Assembly: GCF_900107455.1 (NCBI RefSeq)
Contig: NZ_FNQB01000004.1
Span: 280,193-320,192, forward strand
Origin: Asanoa ishikariensis
Lineage (GTDB): Bacteria > Actinomycetota > Actinomycetes > Mycobacteriales > Micromonosporaceae
Length of the DNA stretch: 40,000 nucleotides
Direction: 5' to 3'
The position numbers and the translations under genes are program-made. This document shows, piece by piece, positions 4,816 through 29,208 of this stretch (positions are counted from its first letter, which is position 1; each line of letters begins with the position of its first letter). Under the pieces are notes generated by a model, which was not told the origin of the DNA, ran no database searches, and saw only the letters and a program-made list of their open reading frames with translations.

Positions 4816-5520
4816 ATGTCTGACACGAAGCCGAAGGCCGTGGTCCTCCTCAGCGGTGGCCTTGACTCCGCTACGGTGCTCGCGATGGCGCTGCGCGAGG
4901 GGTACGAGGCGTATGCGCTGAGTTTCCGGTACGGCCAGCGCCACACGGTCGAGTTGAAGGCCGCGGCTGCGGTAGCTGAGCAGTTCGGCGTCCGTCGGCA
5001 CGTCATCGCCGACATCGACCTGCGGGCCTTCGGCGGTTCGGCCCTCACGGACGACGGGATCGCGGTGCCGCACTACGCCAGCGCAGACGAGCTGAGCCAA
5101 GACATTCCGGTCACCTACGTGCCAGCACGTAACACCATCTTTCTGTCCTTCGCCCTCGCGTGGGCAGAGACGCTTGACGCCTCAGACGTGTTCATTGGCG
5201 TCAACGCGCTTGACTACAGCGGCTACCCGGACTGCCGTCCGGAGTTTATCGCCGCCTACGAGGCGATGGCGAACCTAGCCACGAAGGCGGGAGTGGAAGG
5301 GCGTCAGCGGTTGCGCATCCACACGCCGCTTATCGAACTGACGAAGGCCCAGACGATTCGTAGTGGCCTGGAGCTTGGTGTTGACTACTCGCTGACGCAC
5401 AGCTGCTATGACCCAGCCGATGATCGGGCCTGCGGGACGTGTGACTCTTGCCTGCTACGGGGACGTGGGTTCGCCGAGCTCGGTCTCTCTGACCCGGCAC
5501 TGGCACCCGCCGCCGGGTGA
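4816..5520 (+). CDS. queC: 7-cyano-7-deazaguanine (preQ0) synthase QueC
   Basis: Track ORF 4816..5520. PP-loop [13 protein letters not shown] and C-terminal zinc cluster CYDP...[13 protein letters not shown] preceded by an AAGGAAGG RBS. Confidence 0.9.
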
Positions 5521-5523
5521 GTC

Positions 5524-6165
5524 GTGGTGTACCGGGTCAAGGAGATCTTCTACACGCTGCAAGGCGAGGGCACGCATGCCGGCCGGCCGGCCGTGTTCTG
5601 TCGGTTCACTAGCTGCAATCTGTGGACCGGCAGGGAGCAGGACCGGCATCGTGCCCTATGCCAGTTTTGCGACACGGACTTCGTCGGCACAGACGGCCCC
5701 GGAGGTGGGCGATTCCGTTCCGCGGCGGATCTGGCCGCTGCGGTCGCCCGCACTTGGGAGGGCGAACCGCATCCACGTAGCAGGCCCTATGTCGTCTGCA
5801 CCGGAGGCGAACCGCTACTGCAACTCGACGACGAGGCCGTACACGCCCTGCACAATCTGGGCTTTGAGGTGGCCGTGGAGACCAACGGCACTCGCCCGGC
5901 GCCGGCCGGTCTCGACTGGATCTGCGTCAGCCCCAAAGCTGGCGCACCGGTCGTGTTGACCGCAGGACACGACCTGAAGTTGGTCTTTCCGCAGGCGGGC
6001 GCCGAGCCCGAATTGTTCGAGGACCTGGAGTTCGAGCACTTCATGCTTCAGCCGATGGACGGACCGGACCGGGTGGCGAACACCGAGGCCGCGGTTCGCT
6101 ACTGCATGAAGCATCCGCAATGGCGTTTGAGCTTGCAGACGCACAAGTACATAGGAATCGCCTGA
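5524..6165 (+). CDS. queE: 7-carboxy-7-deazaguanine synthase QueE (radical SAM)
   Basis: Track ORF 5524..6165. [11 protein letters not shown]-terminus and a CX14CX2C cluster motif ([20 protein letters not shown]), as in the Burkholderia-type QueE subclass. GTG start 3 nt after the queC stop. Confidence 0.9.
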
Positions 6166-6521
6166 TGGAAATATTCCGGGAGTTCACCTTCGAAGCCGCA
6201 CACCGGCTTCCCAACGTGCCGGAAGGACACAAGTGCGCCCGGTTGCACGGCCATTCCTATCGAGTTCAGGTACACGTCTCGGGTGAGGTCGACGCGCAAA
6301 CCGGGTGGGTGATGGACTTCGGCGACCTCAAGAAGGCGTTCCAGCCTTTGCACGCTCAACTCGACCACTACTACCTCAACGAGGTAGCGGGCCTGGAGAA
6401 TCCGACCAGCGAGGTGCTTGCCCGCTGGATCTGGGATCGGCTCATAGGCCAGTTGCCGGTGTCCGCCGTGATGGTGCGCGAGACGTGCACATCCGGCTGC
6501 GTCTATCGAGGGGAGCAGTGA
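6165..6521 (+). CDS. queD: 6-carboxy-5,6,7,8-tetrahydropterin synthase QueD
   Basis: In-frame ATG 6165 within track ORF 6120..6521. [32 protein letters not shown] is the typical PTPS/QueD His-triad region. The start shares 1 nt with the queE stop (TGATG). Confidence 0.9.
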
Positions 6522-7318
6522 TGTTGCCGGACGTGCAGGGACTCTCGGACGAGCGAGGCGTCACCCTGGACGACGTCGGAATCGAAGGTCTTCGGTATCC
6601 GCTGCTGATTGCGGACGGTCAAGGCGTCAAGCGCGAGACTGTCGCCACTGTCGACATGTCCGTCGGCATAGAGGCAGACGTCAAGGGCGCACATCTGAGC
6701 CGTTTCGTGGAAGTGCTGCATGCATGGCGGGACCAACTCGATGCGACGAGTGCGATCAGCCTTGCCGAGGACGTGCGTACCCGGCTTGGCACTCGCGACG
6801 CCCGGGTGCGACTGTCGTTCGCCTACTTCCTCGAGCGTCGGGCGCCGGTTACCGGGGCCTGCTCGTTTTCCGAGTACCAATGCACTTTGACGGTTGCGAC
6901 GAGTGGGGGCGCTGCCTCGCTCCTGTTGCAGGTCCGTGTTCCGGTGACGAGCGTGTGTCCCTGCAGCAAGGCGATCAGCGACCGTGGTGCACACAACCAG
7001 CGTGGCTACGTCACCATCGAGGTCGAACCAGCGACCGGTGCGCAGCTCTGGTTCGACGACCTCATCGATGTCGCGGAAGCATCGGCATCATCACCGGTGT
7101 ATGCCTTGCTCAAGCGGCCCGACGAGCGGCACGTCACGATGGCGGGCTATGACAACCCTGTCTTCGTCGAGGACATGGCACGCCATGTCGCCGTTGTGCT
7201 TCGCGGCGACGTGCGTATCGCTCGATTCCGGGCCCGGGTCGTCAATGACGAGAGCATCCACAATCACGCCGCATTCGCGCGGCTGGACTGGACGGCCACC
7301 GACGACGGGAACGCGTGA
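6521..7318 (+). CDS. folE2: GTP cyclohydrolase I type 2 (FolE2/MptA family)
   Basis: In-frame ATG 6521 within track ORF 6305..7318. FolE2-like blocks DVQG..DERG, GAHLSRFVE, VTSVCPCSKAIS, AHNQRGYVT, FVEDMAR. The start shares 1 nt with the queD stop. Confidence 0.85.
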   Translation: MLPDVQGLSDERGVTLDDVGIEGLRYPLLIADGQGVKRETVATVDMSVGIEADVKGAHLSRFVEVLHAWRDQLDATSAISLAEDVRTRLGTRDARVRLSFAYFLERRAPVTGACSFSEYQCTLTVATSGGAASLLLQVRVPVTSVCPCSKAISDRGAHNQRGYVTIEVEPATGAQLWFDDLIDVAEASASSPVYALLKRPDERHVTMAGYDNPVFVEDMARHVAVVLRGDVRIARFRARVVNDESIHNHAAFARLDWTATDDGNA

Positions 7319-8268
7319 TGTCTAACGCTGCTTCCGTCATCTCGCCGATCCACGTCATCGTCACCTGTGCCAATCGCAAGACCGCAGCGGTGCCAGACGA
7401 GCTCCGGCTCGGCGGCTTGAAGGTTCATTCGGCGCAGCAACGGTTCCCGGTCTGGGCGGAACGGCTCGCGACTACGGATTGCCCCAGGGTCCCGGCGATC
7501 GATCTCTATGCCGGGGAGCACTGGCACGGTGCCCGTGCCCTCCGGCAGACTCTTTCGAGCGCCGCGAACCTTTGGGTCTGCTCCGCCGGTTACGGGCTTG
7601 TCGCCGCAGACGCGCCGCTTGCTCCGTACGCGGCGACCTTCGCCCCTGGGGCGGACGACTCCGCTGGTTCGTCGCCAACGGAGATGCGTGAGTGGTGGCG
7701 GCAGCTCACCCGATGGAATTGGTCCGCGGAGGCTGGCCCCCGATCGTTCGCCGATCTTGCGCGGCAGAACCCACAGGGCGTCATCATCGCGGTGCTGTCT
7801 GAGTCCTACATGCGGGCCTGCTCCGACGATCTCCGCGAGGCTGTCGCCTGCTTGAACGACCGCGAACAATTCGCGATCTTCGGTCCGCCCAATCGCTGCA
7901 CGGAACTCGATGAGTTCGTTGTGCCGGTAACGGGTGCGCTGCGTCCGGTGGTCGGCGGCAGCATGCAGGCGCTCAACGTCCGCGCTGCTAACCATCTTCT
8001 CCGCGCCGCAGGCGACAGGTTCTCGTACAGCGCCCTCTGCAAACTCGCTCAGGAGGCTACCGAAGCGGCTGCTCCGGATCCGGGCCGGCGGCCGGCTGGA
8101 CAGAAACTGGGCGACGACGAAGTGCGTGAGTACATCCGCCGGGCTCTCGCTGAAGGACGTAGTTCCGCTACGGGTCTTCTGCGGAGGTTGCGCGCGTCAG
8201 GTCAATCCTGCGAACAAGCCCGCTTCCACGCCCTGTTCGCAGCGATCGCCGGGGAGGTGCAGGGATGA
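7315..8268 (+). CDS. dpdC: DUF328/YaaA-like protein with a C-terminal extension; DpdC candidate (preQ0-DNA to ADG-DNA step)
   Basis: Track ORF 7315..8268. By eye it is collinear with E. coli YaaA blocks: [10 protein letters not shown] ~ [20 protein letters not shown] ~ [27 protein letters not shown] ~ [34 protein letters not shown] ~ VINLASDEYFKSV. It sits immediately upstream of the DGQHR/dpdA genes. The DpdC assignment is from position plus my recollection that DpdC is DUF328-like, and is unverified. Confidence 0.55.
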   Translation: [317 protein letters not shown]

Positions 8269-9410
8269 CGTCGACAGCCGTCTCCGCGAGGCATCTGGTC
8301 CGGAGGGCCCTGCGCATCGACCAGACGGGCACCCAACCGCTGTTCGTTTTCGCGCTGCGCGCCGACGAGGTGTTGCGGATCGCCGACATTTCCCGAGTCA
8401 GCAGGGACGAGGCCGGCAACCTCATCGGCTACCAACGACCTGAGGTGCGTCGGCACGTGGAGGAGATCGTCGAGTACCTGAACACCGCAGGATCACTGTT
8501 TCCCAACCCGATTATTCTCGCTCTGTCGTCGCGGACGCGGTTCGAGTCCAGCCGTGGGCCGGGGGCTGGCGATGGTCTGGCTACGTCCGGCAAACTGACG
8601 ATTCCACTGCCGGCGGACGGAAAACCCAAGCCGGCCTGGATTGTGGACGGCCAGCAGCGAGCGCTCGCCCTTGCACGGACTCACCGCAGCGACTTCCCAG
8701 TTCCGGTAACCGCGTTCGTTGCCGACAGCGTCGGCCTGCAACGTGATCAGTTTCTACGCGTCAACAACACCAGGCCGCTTCCGCGCGGGCTTGTCACCGA
8801 ACTGCTTCCCGAGGTGGACAGTCCTCTCCCGCCGCGACTGGCGATCCGCAAGGCTCCAGCGGCCCTGTGCGACGTGCTCAACACGGACCCCGCCTCTCCA
8901 ATGCACGGGCTCATCAAGAGGGCTTCGACCACGCGCGAGCAAGCGCCAAACGCAGTCATTACTGACACGGTCATCGTCAACATGATCAATGAAAGCCTCA
9001 CGTCACCGTCCGGATGCCTGTTCCCTTATCGGGATGTCAGCCGGAACGAAACCGACTTCGACGGCATCCTGCAGGCGCTGTTCACCTACTGGGCGGCGGT
9101 GCGCGATACTTTCCCGGACGCGTGGGGGAAGCCGGCTAACAAAAGCAGACTGATGCACGGCGCAGGCGTTCGCGCGATGGGCCGGCTCATGGACCGAATC
9201 CTTGGTGTTGTTGATCCACGTAGCCCCAACGCGCCGGAGACAATCCGGCAGCACTTGGCCCTTATCGCACCGTATTGCCACTGGACCGCAGGCACGTGGG
9301 ACGACCTCGGCCTGCGCTGGAACGAGATCGAGAACGTGCACCGACATATACAAGAGTTGTCCAGTTACCTAATCCGTGTTCAGCGCAACACCCGGGTGGA
9401 GTTGGCGTGA
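8265..9410 (+). CDS. dpdB: DGQHR domain (ParB/DndB-like) protein, DpdB-like, paralog 1
   Basis: Track ORF 8265..9410. GYQRPEVRRHVEEIVEYL and WIVDGQQRALAL (DGQHR motif), then QFLRVNNTRPLPRGLVTELL. ATGA overlap with the upstream gene, GTGA overlap with dpdA. Confidence 0.75.
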   Translation: MTSTAVSARHLVRRALRIDQTGTQPLFVFALRADEVLRIADISRVSRDEAGNLIGYQRPEVRRHVEEIVEYLNTAGSLFPNPIILALSSRTRFESSRGPGAGDGLATSGKLTIPLPADGKPKPAWIVDGQQRALALARTHRSDFPVPVTAFVADSVGLQRDQFLRVNNTRPLPRGLVTELLPEVDSPLPPRLAIRKAPAALCDVLNTDPASPMHGLIKRASTTREQAPNAVITDTVIVNMINESLTSPSGCLFPYRDVSRNETDFDGILQALFTYWAAVRDTFPDAWGKPANKSRLMHGAGVRAMGRLMDRILGVVDPRSPNAPETIRQHLALIAPYCHWTAGTWDDLGLRWNEIENVHRHIQELSSYLIRVQRNTRVELA

Positions 9411-10648
9411 GATTCTTCTTCCCGGACAGCCAGGACCAGGTCGATCCGACCTTCGACTTCGAGACCGAGGAGCACGATCCGTTTCGCGTGCGACAGCGGG
9501 ACGATCTCTATGCCCACGAGGTGTTGACAGGGGCCCCGTTCGACGGCTTGCTCGTCTCAAAGGCCATCGTCGACGGCCAGGCCGGCAGCAGCGCCGGCAA
9601 GTACACCGTGGCTCAGCGGCACCGGCTCTACCGCGAAGGCGCTCGTCGGTTCTTCCGCCTGGACCACGGGCATACACCTCTCAAGATCATGGGGGACTGT
9701 GGAGCATTCTCTTACGTCGCGGAGGCGAAGCCGCCGTACACGGTTGACGAGGTTATCGACTTCTACGACGGATGCGGATTCGACTACGGCATTTCCGTCG
9801 ACCACGTCATCTTCCAGTACGACCCGACAGCGAGCCTGGCGGAAGCCGAAGGGAGAGGGTGGGCGGAGCGTCAGCGGATCACGCTCGAGCTCGCGGAAGC
9901 GTTCCTGGACCGATGTGCGACGAGACGGGTGAACTTCAGCCCTTACGGTGTGGCGCAAGGATGGAGCCCGCAGTCCTATGCCGAGGCGGTGAATAGGCTG
10001 CAAGACCTGGGCTATCGGCACATCGCCCTCGGTGGGATGGTGCCGCTCAAGTCGCGCGACATCCTGGCGTGCCTCGCCGCCATCAAGCAGGAGCTTCGAA
10101 GCGATATGGAGATGCACTTGCTGGGTATCAGCCGGTGCGATGACGTTCCGAGCTTCGCCGCGGGCGGAGTCACCAGCTTCGACAGCACGTCGCCGTTCAG
10201 GCAGGCGTTCAAGGACGATCGCGACAATTACTACACGCAGTCGCGCACCTATGTCGCCCTGCGGGTGCCGCAGGTGGATGGCAATCTGAAGTTGAGGGCC
10301 CGGATCCGTTCCGGCGAGATCAGCCAGGGCATGGCGATCGCGTTGGAGCGGGAGGCGCTTGATCAACTCCGTCGGTACGACAAGGACGAAACTGACGTCG
10401 ACTCCGTCGTGCAGGCACTCGCGTCCTACAGCGCCGTCTGGGACGGCAAGTCCGACCGCAGCAGTCAATATCGTGAGACACTCACCGACCGTCCGTGGCG
10501 AAACTGTTCTTGTGACCTCTGCCAGCGGCACGGTATTGAGATCGCGATCTTCAGAGGATCCGAACGCAACAAGCGCCGTGGATTCCACAACCTGTACGTC
10601 TTCGAACAGCAACTTCGTGCCCGCCAAGCAAGGAAGGACCCCGCGTGA
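9407..10648 (+). CDS. dpdA: tRNA-guanine transglycosylase-like DNA transglycosylase DpdA
   Basis: In-frame GTG 9407 within track ORF 9275..10648. N-terminus VRFFFPDSQDQVDPTFDF, TIM-barrel-like core (GDCGAFSY, ALGGMVPLK, HLLGISR, FDSTSP) and a TGT-type zinc site CSCDLCQRHG...FHN. About 413 aa. Confidence 0.85.
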   Translation: MRFFFPDSQDQVDPTFDFETEEHDPFRVRQRDDLYAHEVLTGAPFDGLLVSKAIVDGQAGSSAGKYTVAQRHRLYREGARRFFRLDHGHTPLKIMGDCGAFSYVAEAKPPYTVDEVIDFYDGCGFDYGISVDHVIFQYDPTASLAEAEGRGWAERQRITLELAEAFLDRCATRRVNFSPYGVAQGWSPQSYAEAVNRLQDLGYRHIALGGMVPLKSRDILACLAAIKQELRSDMEMHLLGISRCDDVPSFAAGGVTSFDSTSPFRQAFKDDRDNYYTQSRTYVALRVPQVDGNLKLRARIRSGEISQGMAIALEREALDQLRRYDKDETDVDSVVQALASYSAVWDGKSDRSSQYRETLTDRPWRNCSCDLCQRHGIEIAIFRGSERNKRRGFHNLYVFEQQLRARQARKDPA

Positions 10649-11796
10649 CCGAGACCTCCGAGCGTGATAGTGGTACGGCGACTGAACTCCGGCTGCCCAC
10701 GCTGAAGATCGATCAGGGGCGCGGGCGCAGCCTGTTCAGCTTCGCCGTCGACGGCAAGCTGGTGCCGCAGATCGCAACGGTTTCCCGCATCCGCCGCGAC
10801 CAGAACACCGAACTACACGGCTATCAGCGCCCCGAAGCGCTCAGCCACGTGGCGGCAATCCGTCGGTACATCGAGACTGACGAGAGTCCCATGCTTCCCA
10901 ACGCCATCGTTATCGCGTTCGACGAGCGAGTTCGATTCGAGCCGGCTTCAGGCAGCACCATCGACGAACCGGGCTACGTACAGGCCGGCACCTTGGTCAT
11001 TCCGTTGATCGACGGGCCGGACCACGAACGGCCTGGATTCATCGTGGATGGTCAGCAACGTTGCGCCGCCATCCGAGACGCCCGCGTCGACCGATTCCCG
11101 ATCAGCGTGAACGCCTTCGTCACCAGCGAGACCGCTGACCAGCGTTCGCAATTCATCCTGGTCAACTCCACCAAAGCACTGCCGAAGGGCCTGATTCACG
11201 AGTTGCTACCTCGTGCGTCCGGCGCTCTGCCGACACCGCTGCGTGTTCGCCAACTGCCGGCCACGCTGCTGGAGCGACTCAACTTCGACGCCGTGCGTTC
11301 CCCGCTGCATCACATGATTCAGACCCCGACCAACCCAGGCGGATACATCAAGGACAACTCGATGCTTCGGATGCTGGAAAACAGCCTTTCCGACGGCGCC
11401 CTTTACCGTTATCGCAACGACGACGGGCTGCCCAGCACCGGGGAAATGCTGACGTTGCTGTACAACTTCTGGGCCGCCGTCAGGGATACCTTCCCGGACG
11501 CGTGGGGCAAGCCGTCTCGCAAATCCCGGCTCATGCACGGTGCGGGCATCGTCAGCATGGGATACCTGATGGACGCGATCAGCCACGTCCGTGACAACGG
11601 AGGCGAGATCGTCAGCACCGAGGAGTTCGCCGTCGACCTCAAGGCCGTGGCCGAGGATTGCCACTGGACCGAGGGCGAATGGAGGTTCAGCGACGGTGTC
11701 GTCCGCAAGTGGAACGACATCCAGAACACTCCGAAGGACATCCAGCGAGTGGCGGACATGCTGCAGAACCGCTATCGGGCCAGCCAACTCCGCTGA
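10645..11796 (+). CDS. dpdB: DGQHR domain (ParB/DndB-like) protein, DpdB-like, paralog 2
   Basis: Track ORF 10645..11796. GYQRPEALSHVAAIRRYI, FIVDGQQRCAAI, QFILVNSTKALPKGLIHELL. Collinear with the 8265..9410 product over its full length, including a near-identical block FWAAVRDTFPDAWGKPSRKSRLMHGAG. GTGA overlap with the dpdA stop. Confidence 0.75.
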   Translation: MTETSERDSGTATELRLPTLKIDQGRGRSLFSFAVDGKLVPQIATVSRIRRDQNTELHGYQRPEALSHVAAIRRYIETDESPMLPNAIVIAFDERVRFEPASGSTIDEPGYVQAGTLVIPLIDGPDHERPGFIVDGQQRCAAIRDARVDRFPISVNAFVTSETADQRSQFILVNSTKALPKGLIHELLPRASGALPTPLRVRQLPATLLERLNFDAVRSPLHHMIQTPTNPGGYIKDNSMLRMLENSLSDGALYRYRNDDGLPSTGEMLTLLYNFWAAVRDTFPDAWGKPSRKSRLMHGAGIVSMGYLMDAISHVRDNGGEIVSTEEFAVDLKAVAEDCHWTEGEWRFSDGVVRKWNDIQNTPKDIQRVADMLQNRYRASQLR

Positions 11797-11809
11797 CCGA
11801 GAAACCAGG

Positions 11810-11842: not shown

Positions 11843-11851
11843 TCTGCCGGC

Positions 11852-19402: not shown

Positions 19403-22400
19403 CTGACTTCTCCAGCTCCGTCATGTCGCCCACGATCTGCTGCCACTCGGTGTGCACCTTGCGCACCTGTTCGGCCAGGTCCTCGCCCCGCCCGCCGGCG
19501 TGCTTCGCCGCCGCCTCCAGGCCGAACTGCAACCATGCGTCGCACTCCTTGAGGAAGGCCATCAGCGATCCCAGATCTGCACCCCGGTCTCGGACAGCCG
19601 TGGTGATCTGGATCCGTTTCCACTCGTTGTCCTCGGCATTTTCCAGTCGTTCGAGGTCCCGTCGCACCTGCTCGATGACCTGGGAGTTTCGACCGCGTAC
19701 GGCCTTGAGCTTCGCAGGGAAGCCCGCCACAAGGTCCTCACCACCGGGCAGCAGACCCGTGGCCTTGGCCTCCTTGAACGCCTGGTTGACCGCGTCCAGG
19801 GTCTCACTCACGTTCACGCCGGCGGGGATCCACCCGGATAGTTGTTCGCTGATGACGCGCAGAGCACTGTTCTGTTGTTCCACGAGTTCGTCGAACTTTG
19901 TGAGTGGCGCGTTCGCGTCCCGATACCACTTGACTGCTTCCGACTTCGCGATGGACCAATCTGCGGCCGCCTGCCGGATGAGTGGCATGATGCGGGCGGC
20001 ATCGAGGATTCGGGCGTTGAGGCCGCTCGTGCCCTGGCGCGCGCCCAGTAGTTGGCGCAGGTCCGCCACCATCGCGGGCCGGGCGGACCGGTGCTTGGTA
20101 AGGGCGGTGTTCCAGCGGTCCGACCGTATCGCGGCGTCGCCGAGTTCCCAGGTGATGCCCTCGTCGAAAGCCGCGGCGACGAGCTCGGTGTCCTTCATGC
20201 CCGGCCATGCGCGGCCGGCCAGGGCGGCGCCCATCAGAGACACTCGAAGCGCGGCGACCAGCCGGTCGTCCTCCGCGCTGCGAACGCGTAGCACGGCTGC
20301 GATGACGTCAGGCTGGTGCAGTTCGGCGAGGCGGGCGAGCCGCGGCAGAGCCGATTCGTTTCCGGGGGCGTCGGCCTTTGCTTGGAGGGTCAGCAGATGT
20401 TCGAAGAAGACCGCATTGTGCTGGTTCCGAACGAAACGAATCGGAGCGCCCGCGCTTTGCGCCTCTCCTGCGGCGTTCTCGATCGAAACCACCGATGAAG
20501 CGTTTGGCCATGCGGTCTTTTTGATGTCCGCTCCTGGTTCGGCCATCAGCGGCGTGCTCCAGTCGCAACGGCTCATTACCGCCGTACCGACGATTTGACG
20601 GATCCTCATAGCCGCGTTCTGTTCCAGCGGCTCGCGCCCGGCCGCCCACTCCAGAACGGATTTCACGTTGGCCTGCAACGATCTCGTCCAGTTTGCCCTG
20701 TGATCATTCGGCTTCTTGGGCGGCAGTCGTGGTGGTTCGTCGTCCAACTGCTCGAGAACTCGGCGCCCGGCGACATTGAGTTCAGGGATGGCGAAGGCCT
20801 CGTGGATACCGGAAGCCAGGTTAATCACCTCGGCGGGAGCACCGCCCCAAAACTCCAGCATGACCGTCCGGCGGGCAGAGTCGACCGCATCCAGTTTTTC
20901 AATCTCGACCGCGACGAAAGGCGAGAGCGGATCCTCGCCGCGCGCCAACGGGAACTGCTCCTGGAAACGACTACCCGGAAAACGTCTGTCGGCCAGGTCC
21001 TCTGCGTCCTCGAGCACCGGACGAATCACCCGGCCGATGATCCGGCGAGGGTTGAAAGTGTCTAGTTCGCCCCGGGCGGGGGTGCTCCGAATAGCTCGCC
21101 GAAGCGCGTGCCAGTTGAAGGGGAATAAGCCGTGCCCGCTTGGGGAGACACCGAACGCCTCATGACAGCTGTCGCGGAACTTGCAGTCGACGCACGCGTT
21201 CGGCACTTCGGCGTTGTAGGCGACGCCGGCGGCTTCCAACCGGTCTACCCCGATGCGCGCGGCGTTCAAGTATCGCCCGACGAAGTCCTCGGTTTGCCTT
21301 CGTCCCTCCGTGTCCGCGTCGAAGTCGGTGTCGAGGTCGTAGACGTACGGGGTGGCTGCCTCGATTCGGGTGACGACGGTCTTGGTGAGCGTGAGGTAGT
21401 AACCCGACGTGATTGCCATCAGCGTCCGGACCGGTGCATAGATTTGCCGTCCGTCGCGAACACCTGCTTCGATCAGGACCTCAAGCAGGTCCTGCTGCAA
21501 ACCTTGGATGACCGCGAAGTCCTCGATCAAGAGGACGAGTTCCTTGCCCTGCCGCTGATACTCCTCGCGAATTGTCAGCATGGCGTCCTGGAGCCGGCCG
21601 CCGAGCTTGAACACCTGCTGCACCGCGGTGGAGAGATTTTCAGTGATCAGGTCCGCCGCCGCAGTCTGCAACTCCGGCCGACTCATGATCAGAGTGAGTA
21701 GTGAACGGACCCGCTGGGCGGCCTCGCTGACGTCGCTAATGTGCGGCAGGTCCTCTGGGGTGAACTGGGTGGGCCGGTCAGACTCGCCGTCGCCTCGGTC
21801 ATTGAGCAGGCTCGCGGCGAGGCGTGGGATCAGTGATCCGGGGTCGTCCGTTAGATGGTGCCCGACAGTCACGTCGCGGAGCACCTCAGCCAGCTTGCCC
21901 TGACTCACCAAAGCCCTGCGGGACGGGTCGGAGCCGGGTTGCGCGCCTGTGATCGCCTCGGCTAGCGCGAACAGCAAGTGTCGCTGCAAGGCCTTCTCGT
22001 CCATACCGCTGGCGAGATCGTCGACCTGGTTGCGCAATTGGGTGAGCTTTTCGCTATGGATGTCGCTGCGTTCAAGCAGGATCCGAACGAGCGCCCGTAG
22101 ACTGGTGCTGGCCTTGGGGATATGGATGATTACCCGGTGGTCGACAGGCATCCGGCTGGTGCGTTCGTGGACCCATCGCACGAGGTGCGATTTCCCGGTG
22201 CCGGACTCGCCAATCACCGGCATGAGCAAGGCGCCGTTCCCCGGCGAGCGGTTCAAGAAGTCTTGCAGTACATCCTCCTCAGTCACCACCGCCCCAGCCA
22301 CGCCCTCGAGCAACTGCGGATCACGCCGCCGGATGCGCAGCGGCGCATGGGTGGCCAAGAAGACAGCGGTGGACGGGCTGACGGCCTCGGTACTCAGCGT

Positions 22401-22451
22401 CGAGATCGCGGTGGAGACCGTCCAGCAGACCCTCTCATCCAGGTCAGACAT
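19395..22451 (-). CDS. Large P-loop NTPase (about 1018 aa); DpdH-position candidate
   Basis: Track ORF 19395..22529, with preferred ATG 22451 (MSDLDERV...) overlapping the upstream stop by 8 nt. Walker A VIGESGTGKSHLV, Walker B-like LVLLIEDFAVIQG, Cys/His cluster CVDCKFRDSCH (nt about 21161-21205). Confidence 0.6.
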   Translation of the reverse strand: MSDLDERVCWTVSTAISTLSTEAVSPSTAVFLATHAPLRIRRRDPQLLEGVAGAVVTEEDVLQDFLNRSPGNGALLMPVIGESGTGKSHLVRWVHERTSRMPVDHRVIIHIPKASTSLRALVRILLERSDIHSEKLTQLRNQVDDLASGMDEKALQRHLLFALAEAITGAQPGSDPSRRALVSQGKLAEVLRDVTVGHHLTDDPGSLIPRLAASLLNDRGDGESDRPTQFTPEDLPHISDVSEAAQRVRSLLTLIMSRPELQTAAADLITENLSTAVQQVFKLGGRLQDAMLTIREEYQRQGKELVLLIEDFAVIQGLQQDLLEVLIEAGVRDGRQIYAPVRTLMAITSGYYLTLTKTVVTRIEAATPYVYDLDTDFDADTEGRRQTEDFVGRYLNAARIGVDRLEAAGVAYNAEVPNACVDCKFRDSCHEAFGVSPSGHGLFPFNWHALRRAIRSTPARGELDTFNPRRIIGRVIRPVLEDAEDLADRRFPGSRFQEQFPLARGEDPLSPFVAVEIEKLDAVDSARRTVMLEFWGGAPAEVINLASGIHEAFAIPELNVAGRRVLEQLDDEPPRLPPKKPNDHRANWTRSLQANVKSVLEWAAGREPLEQNAAMRIRQIVGTAVMSRCDWSTPLMAEPGADIKKTAWPNASSVVSIENAAGEAQSAGAPIRFVRNQHNAVFFEHLLTLQAKADAPGNESALPRLARLAELHQPDVIAAVLRVRSAEDDRLVAALRVSLMGAALAGRAWPGMKDTELVAAAFDEGITWELGDAAIRSDRWNTALTKHRSARPAMVADLRQLLGARQGTSGLNARILDAARIMPLIRQAAADWSIAKSEAVKWYRDANAPLTKFDELVEQQNSALRVISEQLSGWIPAGVNVSETLDAVNQAFKEAKATGLLPGGEDLVAGFPAKLKAVRGRNSQVIEQVRRDLERLENAEDNEWKRIQITTAVRDRGADLGSLMAFLKECDAWLQFGLEAAAKHAGGRGEDLAEQVRKVHTEWQQIVGDMTELEKSGE

Positions 22452-23364
22452 CGGTGACGTCTCCAATCTCGACATCGGCGAACAGCCCGATACCGCCAGG
22501 TGCTGCAGGATCGAGGAATTGCATTTCATTGCTGGCGTCGGAAGAGGTGGTCAGCTTCAACCACCCGCCCTCGCGGCCCCGCTGTAGCGCGAACGCCAGG
22601 CTGTCCGCCACCTTCCGAGGCCCAACGGGGAGGCCTAACGCCACGCTGAACGCGCCGCCGGGAAAAACTGGAAGGGCGTGCAGCAGGCCGGCAACGAACG
22701 TGGGAGCGTCGAGTTTGGTGCCCGGTTTCCACATTCCGCGGACGGCTCCCCGGACCGCCCGGGTGCAGTCTGGGACCAATCCCGATGTTCCGTCATCGAA
22801 TGGCAGCAATAGCGGTTCCGCGAACCCCAGTGCGGGTGCCCAGTACGTAAAGAGGTTCCACCGCTCTTTATTCTGGAGAGGGTTGCCGAACTCGATGTCC
22901 AAAGCCTTGTATTGCTCTGCATTGAACGTTTTTGTGCTGACCGGATCCAGTTGGCTTCCTCGGGTGAGGAACCAGCTAAGGGCCCGTATGAGGTCCTTGC
23001 CGTTGGTCTGAGACGAGGGGTCGTCGACGACCTCCTTAGGCGTGACGCGAGTAAGCACACGCCCGCGGACGATGTCGTAAAAGCCGGCGATGTCATCTCC
23101 GTCGATGTCGTCGGTGAGCGCGATGACCTCGTCGTCCACAGCCACGAGGCCGAGCGCCACGGCTGTGTTCAAAGCCTTCTCGAAGATGCGCTGGCCGTCG
23201 TCCAGTCGCTCGGGTTCCTTCGTCGTGGCGAAGAGGGTGGGCGGGCTGAGCATGGCCTTGGCCTCGACCAGCCGCTGCTTGCGGCCCGGCTGAACGGCCA
23301 GATGCCGGACGAGCGCCCAGAGTGGCCGCGGCAGCGACGATTCAACGTTGATTAGGGCTACCAT
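22444..23364 (-). CDS. 306-aa protein of unknown function; DpdG-position candidate
   Basis: C-terminal part of track ORF 22444..23817. ATG 23364 (MVALINVESSLPRPLW...) overlaps the RecQ-like gene stop (TAG 23358-23360) by 7 nt. The upstream 151 codons are Arg/Pro-rich and overlap the neighbouring gene, so they are discounted. Confidence 0.5.
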   Translation of the reverse strand: MVALINVESSLPRPLWALVRHLAVQPGRKQRLVEAKAMLSPPTLFATTKEPERLDDGQRIFEKALNTAVALGLVAVDDEVIALTDDIDGDDIAGFYDIVRGRVLTRVTPKEVVDDPSSQTNGKDLIRALSWFLTRGSQLDPVSTKTFNAEQYKALDIEFGNPLQNKERWNLFTYWAPALGFAEPLLLPFDDGTSGLVPDCTRAVRGAVRGMWKPGTKLDAPTFVAGLLHALPVFPGGAFSVALGLPVGPRKVADSLAFALQRGREGGWLKLTTSSDASNEMQFLDPAAPGGIGLFADVEIGDVTDV

Positions 23365-25907
23365 GCGGGGTCCTTCGAGAGGATGTCGAGCGGGATTGCC
23401 TTGTTCATGTATCTCAGCGGTGTTCCGGGACGGTGCGGATCGGGCAGAGTCGCTGGGTGTACAAGGTAAGTGGGCGCCTCCATGCCAAGCCGCTCTACTA
23501 CAGCTTCTGGCAGGGACTCGGTGGTCTCGTCGAGAACCCAGACAAGCGCGCTCTCGTACATGCCCAGCAGGCTCGCGTCGCGATCCACGATCACGGGGTA
23601 GGGTGCGGCCCGGCGTTGTACCCGGCGCAGCAAGGGTTCTGACAGGCCAGGGCCACCCAGGACGCCACACCGCAGCCGGACGAGCTTTTCGAGCAAGTCG
23701 GGGAGCAGGTCGTCGAGATGCTCTCGCCGGCTCCAGTAGATGCTCAGCAGCGGACTGCCGCCACGATACCGGGCCAAGGGATCCGGGCGAGCGGGCCAGC
23801 GTGCGCTGGCTGGCCAAGGGAGCATCCCGCGTCGGCGCATTCCAGTCTGTTCGTCAGGTGCCCGGTGTTTCCGACAGTGGGGGCAACTGCGGCACGAGAG
23901 CCCAGTGGCCAAGGTGCCACCTTGCCACCTGAGCCGGTAGTACTCGGCGAGAATCTCTGACACGCAACGCTCGCCACGCAACAGGGATTTGAGCTGACGC
24001 AGGGCGGTCTGCTGTTGGTCGTGCACCACCTGACGTTGTGCAGTCAGCCGCTCCTTGAAGAAAAATTGGTTGTTGAGTTGGCCTTCGCGCTCACTGACCA
24101 CGCGGAGCACGGCCTGTTGGTCGACAGGCGATTCGCCGTCCTCGTCTTGGTCGCGTCGCCAGGCCGGAGCTTCCTGGCGGATCAGCCCCGCCTGCTCCAT
24201 CAGGTTGAGCAGGCGGACATTCCACTGGATGTTCCGGGCTGATTCGGCGCGCAGATAGGCTGGCAACTCCGCAAGATCGATCTCCAGCGTGGAATCCTCG
24301 GCCACCCGAGCCTTGGCGCGCATGCTCCGCCAGCGGACCCAGCCCAAGTCGTCACCGATCAGGGTCACTCGGCTGAGCCGCTCGGCCAAGTTCTTGTCCA
24401 CCGGTGCGGTGGCCATGTACGCGACGCACGCCCGCCCGTCCCGGCCGCCACGACCGACCTCCTGGTAGTAGCGGTCGATCGTCTCAGGCAAGCACGCGTG
24501 CACGACCGACCGGACGCTCGCCATATCCACGCCCAGACCGAACGCCGAGGTGCCGACAACGACGTCGAAGCGGGTGGCCGACTCATTCCCGGAGGCGTCC
24601 TCGCCGCGCCAGCCGTTGATCACGGTGCGCCGCTCAGCCTCACCGGAGTCCCCGGTCAGTTGAGTTACTCGGCCGAAACCGGCCTCGCGGAGCCGGCGTG
24701 CCCAGTCTGTGGCATCTTGGCGCGTGGTGGTGTAGAGGACCAGCGGCCGCGGCAGCGCGTTGATCGCCTCCATGACCGCGCTGTCCCGCGCATCCTGATC
24801 GGTGAAGTCGTCGACGAAGTAAATGGGCTCGGCCCGAGTGTGCGAGGCCCAGACCAACTCCACCGGGCTCGGCTTCCCGAAAGTCTCCCTGAGGGTGTGG
24901 ACCTGCGAGGCGGTGAGGGTGGCGCTCATCGCGATGGTCACCACCTGGCGCCCCTCCGGCGCAACCCTTAGCCACGACCGGCGCTTAGCCGCGATGGCCT
25001 GAAACTCAGGCCGGAAGTCGTGGCCCCACTGCTCGACGATGTGTGCCTCGTCAATGATCAGGTGGGTCAAATGACCAGCCCGCGCGGCAGCTTCCAACGC
25101 AAAACTCAGGCCGGTGGTCACAGCCTCCGGCGCCGCGATCACCATCCCTTGCTGGCCAGTACGGATGTCCTGCCGGATCGTCTCCTTCACAGCCTTGTCA
25201 AGGCTGCCGGTGTATGCGAACGCCCGTGTCGCGGCAGTCTTGTCACCGCGTTGGATAAGGCGACGGCGCAGTCGGCGCTCCATGTCCAAGGCTAGGACCA
25301 CGGTCGGCACAACCATGACCGCGACACCACCATTTCGGATTGCCGGCAGCACGGTCGCCCACGCGACCTCGGTCTTGCCCTCACCCGTCGGCAGGCAGGC
25401 GATCACGGTGCCACCGGCCGGCGCAGTGGCCAAGGTACGAGCGGCCTCTCGCTGTCCGTACGAGGAGTAATTGCCGAAGCCGAGCGCCTCGGTCCAGAAG
25501 GGATCAGCTGGCAGATCGCGCTCACGGCCAGCGACTCCAGCGTAAACGCGCGACAAATCGTCCTCGGCGGCTGCATCAGGGCTCGGTGAGGGCGACCAGG
25601 GTTCGCCGCCAATGCGTAGGCGTTCCCCGGTCGGAAGGACTGTGCAGCGGGCCGATTTCCACTGCTGCTCAGTCGGTAGGCGAGGACCTGTCGGCACAAC
25701 CAACGAGTCCTGGACGCCGGTGCGGGCCTGATGCTCGAGCAGAACCTGCCTGGTCAACGCGACGACGTCACGCCAGCGCGCTGCGCCGGTTTCCAGGCTG
25801 GCCACGGCGTCACGCAGCCGGCGACAGGTGCCGGCCGTGGGAATGTGCTCGACGTCGGGCCACGCTTGCCAGATCGACTGTGCGGTCGTCCAGTCGTCAT
25901 GCTGCAC
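23358..25907 (-). CDS. dpdF: RecQ-like DEAD/DEAH superfamily 2 helicase, DpdF-like
   Basis: Track ORF 23358..25907. Motif I CLPTGEGKTEV, motif II LIIDEAHIVEQWGHDFRPEF (RecQ-type), MSATLT, and VVGTSAFGLGVDMASVRSVVHACLPETIDRYYQEVGRGGRDG. Downstream CRSCPHCRKH zinc-like motif. Confidence 0.8.
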   Translation of the reverse strand: MQHDDWTTAQSIWQAWPDVEHIPTAGTCRRLRDAVASLETGAARWRDVVALTRQVLLEHQARTGVQDSLVVPTGPRLPTEQQWKSARCTVLPTGERLRIGGEPWSPSPSPDAAAEDDLSRVYAGVAGRERDLPADPFWTEALGFGNYSSYGQREAARTLATAPAGGTVIACLPTGEGKTEVAWATVLPAIRNGGVAVMVVPTVVLALDMERRLRRRLIQRGDKTAATRAFAYTGSLDKAVKETIRQDIRTGQQGMVIAAPEAVTTGLSFALEAAARAGHLTHLIIDEAHIVEQWGHDFRPEFQAIAAKRRSWLRVAPEGRQVVTIAMSATLTASQVHTLRETFGKPSPVELVWASHTRAEPIYFVDDFTDQDARDSAVMEAINALPRPLVLYTTTRQDATDWARRLREAGFGRVTQLTGDSGEAERRTVINGWRGEDASGNESATRFDVVVGTSAFGLGVDMASVRSVVHACLPETIDRYYQEVGRGGRDGRACVAYMATAPVDKNLAERLSRVTLIGDDLGWVRWRSMRAKARVAEDSTLEIDLAELPAYLRAESARNIQWNVRLLNLMEQAGLIRQEAPAWRRDQDEDGESPVDQQAVLRVVSEREGQLNNQFFFKERLTAQRQVVHDQQQTALRQLKSLLRGERCVSEILAEYYRLRWQGGTLATGLSCRSCPHCRKHRAPDEQTGMRRRGMLPWPASARWPARPDPLARYRGGSPLLSIYWSRREHLDDLLPDLLEKLVRLRCGVLGGPGLSEPLLRRVQRRAAPYPVIVDRDASLLGMYESALVWVLDETTESLPEAVVERLGMEAPTYLVHPATLPDPHRPGTPLRYMNKAIPLDILSKDPAW

Positions 25908-28900
25908 GATCGATCCCCCATTGGTTGCCCCCCACGATGCACGTCGCCGCGACTACGCGAATCTTCGGGCGAAGAAGCCCGTTAACTAGGAGGTTTGTCA
26001 TGTCCACGTTCGTCACATAGCTCTCGGTGTCGGAGAGCAGCCGTCCGGCGGCCTTCCGAGCCAATGCTTGCGCCCGCTGGATGGCCAGTTTGCGACGGCC
26101 TTCGGCGTGAGCGGCAGTAGTCTTCGCCTGGAGGTCTTCACTGCTCGCGAGGAGTTCGCGAGCAGTCGCTTCGGCGGTCCGCGCGGCGTCCGCGAAGCGC
26201 GCGAGGCCGCCGAAGCTGTTCAGGACCGGCGTGGCGCGATCGGGGTTCAAGTTGATGTCTCGCGCCCCGTACGGCTGGTTCAGCCACCTGAGGAGGTGTT
26301 CATCGCTAACTCGGGTGCCTGCGGTGTCTAGCCAGACCCGTTCGATGTAAGGCGGTAGCAGCAGGTCGGCGTGCCGCCGAATCGCGTGCTGGGCTTCCTC
26401 GCCGGCATCGGGGTGGTCGAGGGCCGACGTCAAGTCGGCCTCTACCACGACCTCGAATCCAAAGTGCACAGTCTCGTGTGGCTGGCCAGGGCGCCACAGT
26501 GCTGAGGCTTGTCCTCGGTCGTCGATCGCGATGACGGCGCTGAGTAGTTCGATTAGCGGATTGCCGATTCGGAAGAGTCGGACGCCACCATCGTGTAGAT
26601 CGGTGGTGTGCAGGCTGACATTGCGATTGAACGCTCCAGTCATACTGCCGGCCGGGAGGTGGCGGCGTCCGTGCGCCAGAACCAGCGGGGAGATCAACGG
26701 TGGAGCGCTGCTGTTGAATCCGAACGTCACCACGGCTTCGCCGGGTGGTTCGACGGTGAGACGGACACCGCCGCTGGTGTGGGAGGTCAGGGCTCGCAAA
26801 GCACGCTCCTGGCGCTGCCAGCCCAGCTCCATCCGGGCGATCGCCTTGGCGACCCGCAACCCGTTCGGGTCTTCGTGGATCGATTCGAGGGCATCCATCG
26901 CCTCGATCTCGATCCGCTCCTTGCGCAGTTCGGCGACGACCTGGTCCGTCCGCGCGGTTATCGCGGTCGGCCCGTTGAGTACGGCCGCCTCCCAAGCTTG
27001 CTCTTGAATCTGGTCCAGTCGGTCTTGCAACGCCGACAGAGAGCCGTCGAACGCGCCTACCGCGTCTACTAGGAAGTCGCGCCAGGCGGAGTTGAAAGAC
27101 TCGTCGGAGCCACCACCCGACTCGCAGTGTTGGGCAGCGGGTTGTTTGCCGCTCCACGACCAGCCAGCGAACCGGTCAACCCGCCCTAGCCTTTGTTCCA
27201 GCCGGTTCGGCGACCAGGGCAACCGAAGGTGGACGACGACGTCGGCCTCTTGCAGGTTGACCCCGTCCTCTCCGCTGTCGTCCACGATCAGCAGCGCCGA
27301 CCCGGTTCCTAGGCGCCAGGTCGAGAGGTCGGCCGCGACTTGGTCGCCAGCTCGGCTGCCGGTGTGACGCAGGATGGTCCATGGGGTCCGCCGCGTGAGC
27401 AACGCAGCGAGGTCGTCCGCCATCCGCCCGGGGCCGCAGAAAACGACCGGTCGCTGGGCTCCCTTCAGCACTCGGCCAAGTTCGTTGAGAGCCAGCGCGG
27501 GGCTGGTCGTCATCTGGGTTAGCTCGTCCAACGTCTGTTTTTCCGTTGACAACACAGGAACATCGCGAAGTACCGCTCGCTCGGACACGGAGAGTCCGGC
27601 GCTACTCGCCGAGGCCGCAATCCCGTCGATCCGCCACCGAAGCGCATCGATCAGGTCCCCGGAAAGTTCGTCGACTCGGCTGGCGAGGATCGCAAGCACC
27701 TGGCCGTAACGGCGGGCAAGCCTCTCGTCGTCGTGGTCCACCAGCCATTGGGCGACTCGCTGCTGCCACTCCAGCAGGGCTTGTTGTGCAAGTAGCGCGC
27801 GGCGACTGCCCAGCGCGAGGCTTGCTGGCCGGCTACGACTGGTGACCTCGAAGGGCACCAGGTCTTCGTCCCGTGTCGACAGCACGTCGGTGCGGCGGTG
27901 CCGGATCATCCGGCGGTGCATCCGGTACGTCTCGCTGATGTGTGCGCGCAGCAAGTCCAACGCCTCGGCCAACTTTGGCCGCTCCGTTTCGCTGTGCAGG
28001 TCGCCGAACTCGGTGAGGAATTTCCGGATGCCGATCGAAAGCTCGTCGAAGGTCTCGTCGCCGGGAATAATCGTGGCGATTTCATCGAGCACCTGCGGCA
28101 GCAACATCTCAAATTCTGCGTTCAGGCCGTGAACGGCATTGGCGAGTAGTCTTCGATCCTCGAAATGGACGCGGAACCGATCCAGATCGGACCACTTGTA
28201 AAGATGTGGATCGAGCAGATGCAGAAGGCTGAGGTGCAATTCCGGGCGAGCGGCGGCGGGCGTCGCGGAGAGCAGGATGAGCCGGGGTACTGAATGCGCC
28301 AAGGCCACCAACTGCGGGTAGGGTGCCTGCCGAGGGTCGCCGGTCCGGGTGAGGTTGTGCACCTCGTCGATCACGAGAAGATCGAAGCCGTGGTACTCGC
28401 GCCAGCGGTCGGGAGCCTCGTGTTGCCCGATCCGGATGTCCGCGTTCGGGAAGTCGTCGATGAAGAACTTGGTGCGCAACTCGGCCTTCCACTGCCGGCG
28501 CAGAAGATCCGGAGTGAGCACAGCGATCCGGGCCGACGGATGGTCGATGAGGTGCTGCCGGATGACCAGCCCTGCCTCGATGGTCTTGCCCAAACCAACC
28601 TCATCGGCCAGCACGTACCGCTGGACAGGATCAGTTAGGACGGTCAGGGCTGTGTCGACTTGGTGGGGATAGATCTCGATGGCTGATGAAACCAGAGCCG
28701 AGAAGTTCGCCGAGGCGGCACGTTGCCACATCAGGCTGTACAACATGGGAATCCGGGCGTCCCGAAAGTATGGTGACTCGTTCGCGCCGGCCGCGAGCAC
28801 CTCCACCGGTGACTGGACCGGCCGGTTCCACCGCACGTAGAGGTTTGTGGCCGAGATCTGTAGGTCGAACTCTCGGTTGGGTAGACGCACCGCGTAGTGG

Positions 28901-29208
28901 TGCGGACCGCCACCTACGACGCGGCCGGCGCGCCACGCGCCGCTGCCTTCGTGGTCGGGCCAGTACACCCGAGTCTGTATCGGAAGAATGACGACAGAAC
29001 ACTGCTGGGCGGGAAGTTTCCATTCGCGAGCGACGGGTCGAGCGGCGGACTCGAAGGCCTCGACCAGCAGATGATCCCCGTCGTGTGCGCGAACTTTGGC
29101 CACGCCTGGAATGGCTGGGTGCTGTACAAATTGCCCCATGGGATGGCTGGTGAGGGGCGATGGCACCTGCGGAGCGTAGCGAGGATCGTAAGCGTTGATG
29201 ATAGGCAT
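25897..29208 (-). CDS. dpdE: SNF2/RapA-like helicase (1103 aa), first gene of the restriction operon, DpdE-like
   Basis: Track ORF 25897..29208. YPHQ, LADEVGLGKTIEAG (motif I), LLVIDEVHNL (motif II), LLSATP, LPWSPNRLEQRLGRVDRF (motif VI). ATG 29208 is preceded by GAGGAG. Confidence 0.8.
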   Translation of the reverse strand: MPIINAYDPRYAPQVPSPLTSHPMGQFVQHPAIPGVAKVRAHDGDHLLVEAFESAARPVAREWKLPAQQCSVVILPIQTRVYWPDHEGSGAWRAGRVVGGGPHHYAVRLPNREFDLQISATNLYVRWNRPVQSPVEVLAAGANESPYFRDARIPMLYSLMWQRAASANFSALVSSAIEIYPHQVDTALTVLTDPVQRYVLADEVGLGKTIEAGLVIRQHLIDHPSARIAVLTPDLLRRQWKAELRTKFFIDDFPNADIRIGQHEAPDRWREYHGFDLLVIDEVHNLTRTGDPRQAPYPQLVALAHSVPRLILLSATPAAARPELHLSLLHLLDPHLYKWSDLDRFRVHFEDRRLLANAVHGLNAEFEMLLPQVLDEIATIIPGDETFDELSIGIRKFLTEFGDLHSETERPKLAEALDLLRAHISETYRMHRRMIRHRRTDVLSTRDEDLVPFEVTSRSRPASLALGSRRALLAQQALLEWQQRVAQWLVDHDDERLARRYGQVLAILASRVDELSGDLIDALRWRIDGIAASASSAGLSVSERAVLRDVPVLSTEKQTLDELTQMTTSPALALNELGRVLKGAQRPVVFCGPGRMADDLAALLTRRTPWTILRHTGSRAGDQVAADLSTWRLGTGSALLIVDDSGEDGVNLQEADVVVHLRLPWSPNRLEQRLGRVDRFAGWSWSGKQPAAQHCESGGGSDESFNSAWRDFLVDAVGAFDGSLSALQDRLDQIQEQAWEAAVLNGPTAITARTDQVVAELRKERIEIEAMDALESIHEDPNGLRVAKAIARMELGWQRQERALRALTSHTSGGVRLTVEPPGEAVVTFGFNSSAPPLISPLVLAHGRRHLPAGSMTGAFNRNVSLHTTDLHDGGVRLFRIGNPLIELLSAVIAIDDRGQASALWRPGQPHETVHFGFEVVVEADLTSALDHPDAGEEAQHAIRRHADLLLPPYIERVWLDTAGTRVSDEHLLRWLNQPYGARDINLNPDRATPVLNSFGGLARFADAARTAEATARELLASSEDLQAKTTAAHAEGRRKLAIQRAQALARKAAGRLLSDTESYVTNVDMTNLLVNGLLRPKIRVVAATCIVGGNQWGIDRAA

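Follow-up and report, generated by a model that had tools for sequence, protein, structure and literature searches.

In Salmonella Montevideo, the Dpd system is encoded by dpdA-K (Thiaville 2016, PMC10164549). There, DpdA acts with the ATPase DpdB to replace guanine in DNA with 7-cyano-7-deazaguanine (preQ0), DpdC turns the inserted base into an amide (dADG, or 2'-deoxy-7-amido-7-deazaguanosine) independently of DpdA and DpdB, and a restriction phenotype arises from dpdD-K by a mechanism that is still unknown (PMC10164549). Among the 2,335 unique dpd islands covered by a 2025 survey, 78% had QueD and more than 20% had QueC/QueE, and duplication was commonest for dpdB, the extra copies of which numbered 801 (PMC11888242). 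The presence of que genes in dpd islands had also been reported by an earlier review (PMC5699537). Here we describe a 40,000-nucleotide stretch of the Asanoa ishikariensis genome (contig NZ_FNQB01000004.1, positions 280,193 to 320,192; the whole stretch is called the window below), in which positions 4194-33215 (the island) very probably carry a Dpd restriction-modification system that is intact, was acquired horizontally and supplies its own precursor. We assign the island to the known Dpd family, to a subtype that is common in the Micromonosporaceae and occurs on proteobacterial plasmids as well.

The original prediction, made from the letters of the window, had placed two convergent operons at 4816-29208, and their coordinates, strands and start sites were all borne out. 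The plus-strand operon (4816-11796) consists of eight genes in the order queC-queE-queD-folE2-dpdC-dpdB-dpdA-dpdB. The minus-strand operon (11852-29208) also has eight genes, which in the order of transcription are dpdE-F-G-H-I-J-K-D. The two operons converge and are separated by 55 bp. Between the stop codons of the facing dpdB and dpdD genes lies a perfect-looking 15-bp palindrome with 12 GC pairs (11810-11842), and the hairpin that it forms is likely to be a bidirectional terminator. Throughout both operons the neighboring genes either overlap by 1-11 nt or are separated by a 3-nt gap, which indicates translational coupling, and none of the genes in either operon is interrupted.

Gene identities were assigned with the NCBIfam equivalog models at their curated cut-offs, and Pfam, PADLOC and Rfam (the latter at gathering score) were scanned as well. 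DpdA, both copies of DpdB, DpdD, DpdE, DpdF, DpdG, DpdH, DpdJ, DpdK, QueC, QueE, QueD and FolE2 each scored above the curated cut-off of the respective NCBIfam equivalog, with matches that cover practically the entire length, so that chance plays no part in these assignments. The Pfam domains found in the products were TGT, DndB, PLDc_2, DEAD/Helicase_C, a borderline SNF2 and a weak AAA. Together with the PADLOC matches, these results show that every Dpd component class named in the original prediction is present and intact, with a divergent protein in the DpdI slot.

The first four genes of the plus-strand operon, folE2, queD, queE and queC, encode a complete route from GTP to preQ0. The preQ0 synthase gene queC (4816-5520) matched TIGR00364 with 216 bits (cut-off 150.3) and Pfam QueC with E=2e-78, and its start at 4816 is backed both by the start of the profile match and by a AAGGAAGG ribosome-binding site before the ATG. 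It is followed by queE (5524-6165; TIGR04508, 353.7 bits, cut-off 240), which encodes a radical-SAM 7-carboxy-7-deazaguanine synthase of the Cx14CxxC type, by the 6-carboxytetrahydropterin synthase gene queD (6165-6521; TIGR03367, 117.6 bits, cut-off 89; Pfam PTPS, E=6e-38) and by the GTP cyclohydrolase IB gene folE2 (6521-7318; NF010200, 254.6 bits, cut-off 215; Pfam GCHY-1, E=7e-82). The next gene, dpdC (7318-8268, plus strand), would serve the conversion of dPreQ0 to dADG in DNA. Its assignment comes from the PADLOC DpdC models, of which PDLC02817 was matched over the full length with E=4e-62 and PDLC02823 with E=2e-64. The counterparts of this protein on two plasmids (19067-19918 of the pPOL9A locus and 18065-18886 of the Sinorhizobium locus) are annotated as 'hypothetical protein'.

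The original prediction had singled out the product of 9407-10648 (plus strand) for comparison with models of the DpdA clade. This product matched the DpdA equivalog NF041059 with 606.7 bits (cut-off 200) and the crystallized S. Montevideo DpdA (PDB 7UI4) with E=4e-119, and the start of the gene at 9407 is backed by the position at which the profile match begins. We took the active-site residues from the description of the S. Montevideo DNA-guanine transglycosylase and compared them with their counterparts here (PMC10164549). D95, D130 and D256 correspond to D97, D132 and D259, and F99, L236 and F265 correspond to F101, L239 and F268; these residues were shown or proposed to be catalytic or substrate-binding in the S. 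Montevideo enzyme (PMC10164549). The Gly-Gly loop is conserved too (G209-G210). Among the conserved positions are the aspartates that act as nucleophile and general acid and the residues that stack on the base. In dozens of genomes of actinobacteria, relatives with more than 60% identity have already been named 'tRNA-guanine transglycosylase DpdA' by the Prokaryotic Genome Annotation Pipeline (PGAP).

The gene for DpdA is flanked by two plus-strand copies of the gene for the ParB-like ATPase DpdB, an upstream paralogue (8265-9410; NF041060, 422 bits, cut-off 300) and a downstream, canonical one (10645-11796; 473 bits against the same cut-off). The DGQQR motif, which is needed for NTPase activity in the DpdB fold (PMC10164549), is intact in both (residues 128-132 and 135-139, respectively). 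In an alignment of 13 sequences they share 42% identity. The upstream copy shares 87% identity with its counterpart upstream of dpdA in Micromonospora cathayae and 42-48% with the upstream copies of Alphaproteobacteria, and the downstream copy groups with the downstream copies of Micromonospora and with the single DpdB of the Enterobacter cloacae plasmid pPOL9A (49%). The upstream copies split from all the others in 200 of 200 neighbor-joining bootstrap replicates of these 13 sequences, and the actinobacterial and alphaproteobacterial upstream copies form one clade with the same support. Hence, the duplication is old and tied to the position of the copy relative to dpdA, and the two copies are best described as ancient paralogue lineages common to Actinomycetota and Alphaproteobacteria. 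In the literature that we searched, no paper named or analyzed a second DpdB lineage. As the S. Montevideo DpdB is a homodimer (PMC10164549), a heteromer is a reasonable hypothesis in this case, and the retention of DGQQR in both copies suggests a heteromeric ParB-like ATPase. The two paralogues would then act together, possibly as a heterodimer.

The restriction operon is read from the minus strand. Its first gene, dpdE (25897-29208), encodes an SNF2-family helicase (NF041062, 1094.8 bits, cut-off 500) and is followed by the gene of the RecQ-like DEAD/DEAH helicase DpdF (23358-25907; NF041063, 816.7 bits, cut-off 550), by dpdG (22444-23364, with its ATG at 23364; NF041064, 96.4 bits, cut-off 80) and by dpdH (19395-22451), which encodes a large P-loop ATPase with the Walker A motif GESGTGKS (NF041065, 1055.8 bits, cut-off 450). 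Beyond the DpdI slot lies dpdJ (14325-18734), which encodes a large YprA-like DEAD/DEAH helicase that matched positions 1-1482 of the 1482 of NF041067 with 1628 bits (cut-off 800) and has the Walker A motif AGTGSGKT and a DEAH box. DExH boxes are present in DpdE and DpdF as well as in DpdJ. The small nuclease of the PLD family encoded by dpdK (13798-14328; NF041068, 192.7 bits, cut-off 100; Pfam PLDc_2) keeps the H-x-K and G-S-x-N elements of such nucleases. The last gene is dpdD (11852-13801; NF041061, 554 bits, cut-off 300; PADLOC PDLC02839, E=2e-181 over the full length). The original prediction had expected matches of the minus-strand products to the DpdE-K models, and it held for DpdE, DpdF, DpdG, DpdH, DpdJ and DpdK, all of which scored above their cut-offs, but not for the protein in the DpdI slot, which has no direct match.

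This protein of 223 residues (18731-19402, minus strand), the size of which fits DpdI, had zero direct matches in NCBIfam, PADLOC and Pfam, and a word-indexed search of 5.8 billion proteins returned only three relatives. An exhaustive HMMER search with the profile of these relatives found 103 representatives, nearly all of them 220-235 residues long and matched end to end. Among the 77 aligned members of this family, one reached the DpdI model NF041066 (E<0.001) and none reached a PADLOC DpdI model. The family also holds the slot between dpdH and dpdJ in Micromonospora palythoicola (51% identity; gene at 13083-13754 of its locus) and in Micromonospora noduli (32%; 13012-13704). The M. palythoicola protein has a weak collinear match to NF041066 (E=0.002, positions 32-223 of the 239 in the profile). 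The protein in the same slot of pPOL9A (29548-30396; 282 residues) matched NF041066 with E=4e-31 and 108.7 bits, which is below the 150-bit cut-off, and hhalign aligned the family with it over the C-terminal 137 columns (E=5e-6, probability 86%). Because of the slot position, the M. palythoicola match and the pPOL9A intermediate, we read the 223-residue protein as most likely a divergent, fast-evolving DpdI. A comparison of the family with the slot protein of Caulobacter by hhalign was negative (E=0.15); the Caulobacter protein itself has a weak match to the DpdI model (E=3.5e-7).

The AlphaFold2 model of the 223-residue protein is all-helical, with two long helices and a mean predicted local distance difference test score of 94.8. 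A fold search of the PDB with this model gave no match better than E=1.3, so the proposed relationship with the C-terminal part of BrxC found no structural confirmation there. The NCBIfam and PADLOC models miss the putative DpdI of this subtype, and the NCBIfam models miss its DpdC as well. None of the plasmid clusters examined has an annotated dpdI, and the gap in the DpdI models probably accounts for part of the low dpdI detection that has been reported.

The composition of the island sets it apart from its surroundings. Its G+C content is 64.8%, as compared with about 73% at 1-4193 and 33216-40000, and the G+C content at third codon positions (GC3) is 0.67-0.84 in the island genes and 0.92-0.94 in the clearest flanking genes. 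As GC3 is lower in the island genes than in the flanks, the 29 kb in the middle of the window are foreign by their composition. The flanks and the nearest protein relatives, which come from Polymorphospora, Micromonospora, Dactylosporangium and Actinoplanes, agree with the high-GC actinobacterial origin proposed for the window in the original prediction, and these relatives place the host in the Micromonosporaceae or near them. In the databases used, the sequence corresponds to contig BOND01000005.1 of assembly GCA_016862535.1. We found no tRNA genes at the island edges, no flanking direct repeats above chance-level short matches and, in the family-model scans, no integrase or transposase among the open reading frames.

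The gene identities and their intactness, the catalytic motifs, the operon structure and the foreign composition were established in the present analysis, and they agree with the reading of the island as a complete restriction-modification system. In such a system FolE2, QueD, QueE and QueC would make preQ0 from GTP. DpdA, with ATP hydrolysis by the ParB-like DpdB proteins, would then replace chosen guanines in the DNA of the cell with preQ0, and DpdC would convert the inserted base. The dpdE-F-G-H-I-J-K-D operon would restrict incoming DNA that does not carry the mark, using three helicases (SNF2, RecQ-like and YprA-like), an ATPase resembling BrxC that is divided between DpdH and DpdI, and the PLD nuclease DpdK in addition to DpdD and DpdG. 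The roles given here to DpdA, DpdB, DpdC and DpdD-K come from the published work on S. Montevideo. We infer that the island copy is active, and its embedded preQ0 pathway should free it from the queuosine genes of the host.

Several points weigh against this interpretation. The predicted DpdC has no match at all in NCBIfam and misses the Pfam thresholds, with 22.5 bits for DUF6884 (threshold 30) and 16.4 bits for YaaA/DUF328 (threshold 29.6); hence, of the DUF328-like DpdC that had been predicted, the DpdC assignment stands on the PADLOC models, whereas the DUF328 resemblance stays below threshold. In DpdA, Gln184 takes the place of the S. Montevideo His181 and is the sole change among the published active-site residues; glutamine is presumably the residue that bacterial tRNA-guanine transglycosylases have at this position. 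The link of the 223-residue protein to DpdI is transitive only. Finally, a scan for sigma-70 promoters, which is uninformative for actinobacteria, found no promoter-like sites. The divergence of the protein in the DpdI slot could also mean that the island serves modification only, or is decaying, with a restriction half that is no longer active, and modification-only dpd islands are indeed common (PMC11888242), the module on the Sinorhizobium plasmid being an example. We nevertheless consider this quite improbable, as the eight restriction genes are uninterrupted, translationally coupled and matched to their profiles end to end with the NTPase and PLD motifs kept, and the divergent DpdI family has been kept across 103 representatives and has a model of high confidence. 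Even smaller is the chance that the que genes and folE2 supply tRNA queuosine or a 7-deazapurine secondary metabolite and merely adjoin the dpd genes. The shared role of preQ0 as a precursor in tRNA and metabolite pathways makes such a use conceivable (PMC5699537, PMC11888242), but the que genes and folE2 form one operon with dpdC-B-A-B in which they have 1-nt overlaps or 3-nt gaps, the same eight genes are kept together in M. cathayae, dpd islands from other phyla likewise contain que genes, and scans of open reading frames and families found no tgt, queF or tailoring genes in the island.

A further alternative concerns two plus-strand genes that lie upstream of dpdE and are transcribed away from it. 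One (29495-31501; the database gene call starts at 29651) encodes an HsdM-like N6-adenine DNA methyltransferase (Pfam N6_Mtase, E=1e-36; PADLOC MTase_I, E=6e-95), the C-terminal region of which resembles type I specificity subunits and would be its own target-recognition region. The other (31488-33173), which overlaps the first, encodes a Ser/Thr protein kinase with C-terminal tetratricopeptide (TPR) repeats (Pfam Pkinase, E=2e-40, and TPR_12; best PADLOC match PD-T4-6, E=4e-88). That the pair is integral to a Dpd variant, for example as a second epigenetic mark or as a kinase switch that controls restriction, is suggested by its place in the low-GC island, where some 290-440 bp separate it from the divergently transcribed dpdE, and by the same dpdE and methyltransferase-kinase layout in Polymorphospora, the closest relative. 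We regard this as unlikely, although less so than a decayed restriction half. The methyltransferase has thousands of homologues, mostly in Micromonosporaceae, and M. noduli and pPOL9A have different genes 5' of dpdE in their Dpd loci. In the seven genomic contexts that we compared, the methyltransferase is the constant gene amid variable defense content on both sides. It stands beside Dpd in the present island and in Polymorphospora. In A. missouriensis, Actinoplanes sp. CA-030573 and M. soli its neighbors are a DISARM-like SNF2 protein, an MmeI-type methyltransferase and a helicase, with pPIWI-RE also present in Actinoplanes sp. CA-030573, and in M. chersina and a Dactylosporangium they are NaeI/Dcm/Vsr and kinase-UvrD fusions. 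A Ser/Thr kinase immediately adjoins it in four of the seven. Because five other genomes have a methyltransferase of this family beside different defense systems and lack Dpd there, we place the pair outside Dpd; it is best taken as a separate module in a variable defense hotspot, with the methyltransferase as the fixed anchor.

Named systems were also considered for the pair. Neither protein reaches the cut-offs of the MADS or PglW models. For MADS, MAD2 scored 28.7 bits (cut-off 720) and MAD6 124.4 bits (cut-off 460), and none of the other mad genes is found in the island. For Pgl/BREX type 2, PglW scored 59 bits (cut-off 990), and the island has no PglX-, PglY- or PglZ-like open reading frames. 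Membership of the pair in DISARM was ruled out on the curated cut-offs. The pair could be an uncharacterized two-gene module that matches no named system.

With the island read as a complete Dpd system and the pair as its neighbor, a broader picture can be drawn, which we put forward tentatively and as the less probable outcome when all its parts are taken jointly. The B-A-B arrangement would mark an old and distinct Dpd subtype with an obligate heteromeric DpdB clamp, ParB-like and serving DpdA, and a fast-evolving DpdC and DpdI. Its DpdB paralogues, each specific to its position, would have parted earlier than the spread of the module between Actinomycetota and Alphaproteobacteria, and its versions of DpdC and DpdI would escape the current annotation models. 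Separately, the methyltransferase and the TPR-repeat kinase would form an uncharacterized two-gene defense module that sits at a defense hotspot of the Micromonosporaceae.

The remaining features of the window belong to its borders and flanks. At the left border, about 620 bp without a credible gene (4194-4815) extend from a gene of the ornithine cyclodeaminase family to queC, and this region may contain the promoter of the operon or what is left of an insertion site. No preQ1 riboswitch was found 5' of queC, and zero Rfam families reached the gathering score across the window. The open reading frames at 4236-4769 (plus strand) and 29229-29549 (minus strand) were taken as spurious, as they have no family matches and their codon-position G+C is like that of non-coding DNA. 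Apart from the ornithine cyclodeaminase-family protein, the left flank encodes an ABC transporter and a two-component system. The right flank encodes an M1 peptidase and a 1,333-residue protein resembling nonribosomal peptide synthetases (34502-38503, minus strand). The latter has adenylation, carrier and hexapeptide-transferase domains and, with a GC3 of 0.94, the composition typical of the host; it has no relation to the island.

The layout of the island is for the most part already annotated in many related bacteria and adds little as a discovery. The two modest new points are the ancient DpdB paralogues and the methyltransferase as an anchor of a defense hotspot outside Dpd. Nothing in this locus eases the question of how the helicases and the nuclease restrict DNA. 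The island is a clean, complete and self-sufficient actinobacterial example of 16 genes, and because it carries its own precursor pathway, its heterologous reconstitution in hosts without queuosine genes is conceivable. What remains of interest is the failure of annotation to name DpdI and DpdC, and further value lies in the neighboring methyltransferase-kinase module and in the paralogous DpdB pair, the conservation of which offers a testable hypothesis on how a ParB-like ATPase partners with DpdA.

Other defense systems share parts with Dpd. A comparative study relates DpdE to BrxHII/DrmD and DpdH together with DpdI to BrxC, and it likens DpdJ, as a YprA-family helicase, to DrmA and the PLD nuclease DpdK to DrmC; BRIGADE has been reported in halophilic archaea only (10.1101/2025.09.15.676423). 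In the island, the matches to DrmD, DrmA and DrmC of DISARM are weak and fall well short of the cut-offs, whereas the Dpd equivalogs exceed theirs by a wide margin, and the PglZ and PglX proteins of BREX are absent.

With S. Montevideo, the island has ten of the eleven protein families in common and most likely also the eleventh, DpdI, and the likeness extends to the catalytic aspartates of DpdA, the DGQQR motif of DpdB, the PLD nuclease DpdK and the three SF2 helicases. The island differs in having two DpdB paralogues that flank dpdA and four embedded genes of preQ0 synthesis, in its convergent operons, and in the place of dpdD, which is last and not first in the restriction operon. Neither its DpdC nor its putative DpdI is close enough to be recognized by the NCBIfam models, and His181 of DpdA is replaced by Gln. 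The original prediction had listed the embedded preQ0 pathway, the duplicated DpdB, the relocated dpdD and the adjacent methyltransferase and kinase as features by which this copy differs. All four are real as differences from S. Montevideo, but none is distinctive. The preQ0 genes and the second DpdB recur in M. cathayae and on three alphaproteobacterial plasmids and are known from the survey (PMC11888242), in the case of dpdB as the extra copies. M. cathayae, M. noduli and M. palythoicola as well as pPOL9A have dpdD in the same position, and the methyltransferase and kinase are found also in Polymorphospora.

A scan of the contigs in the collection with one protein returned four loci only. 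On the plasmids of the alphaproteobacteria Sinorhizobium, Skermanella and Caulobacter, the order is dpdC-dpdB-dpdA-dpdB-queE-queD(-queC), so that the B-A-B arrangement and the que genes are shared with the island, but the que genes come after dpdA and not before it. The restriction genes are absent from the Sinorhizobium module. In the Skermanella (27086-41242) and Caulobacter (25100-40759) loci, the B-A-B-que module is accompanied by another restriction set, which consists of a helicase, DpdG-sized and DpdH-sized hypothetical proteins, a 230-residue protein with a weak DpdI match, an AAA protein of about 2,100 residues and a hypothetical protein of about 760 residues; this Dpd-like variant is unnamed in the annotation. 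On the E. cloacae plasmid pPOL9A (NZ_CP086409.1), a (DpdC-like)-dpdA-dpdB operon converges on dpdD-K-J-(slot)-H-G-F-E as in the island, and PGAP labels both the DpdC-like protein and the protein in the DpdI slot 'hypothetical'. The plasmid differs in having one DpdB and no que genes, and in a slot protein that, at 282 residues, is closer to the DpdI model.

The closest counterparts are found in the Micromonosporaceae, where the host genes that flank the Dpd islands differ from those around the present one. In M. noduli and M. palythoicola, the restriction genes have the same E-F-G-H-I-J-K-D order and include a slot protein of 223-230 residues. The convergent arrangement of the island is not shared by M. 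noduli, where dpdA-B come before dpdE and are read in the same direction. In Polymorphospora sp., the methyltransferase and the kinase lie beside dpdE as they do here. In M. cathayae, the dpdJ-K-D end of the restriction operon was seen, and it lies 5' of the modification operon and runs in the same direction. M. cathayae and Polymorphospora are the two closest relatives, with DpdA proteins that are 86-89% identical to that of the island (89% for Polymorphospora), and M. cathayae has the identical eight-gene modification operon, queC-queE-queD-folE2-dpdC-dpdB-dpdA-dpdB.

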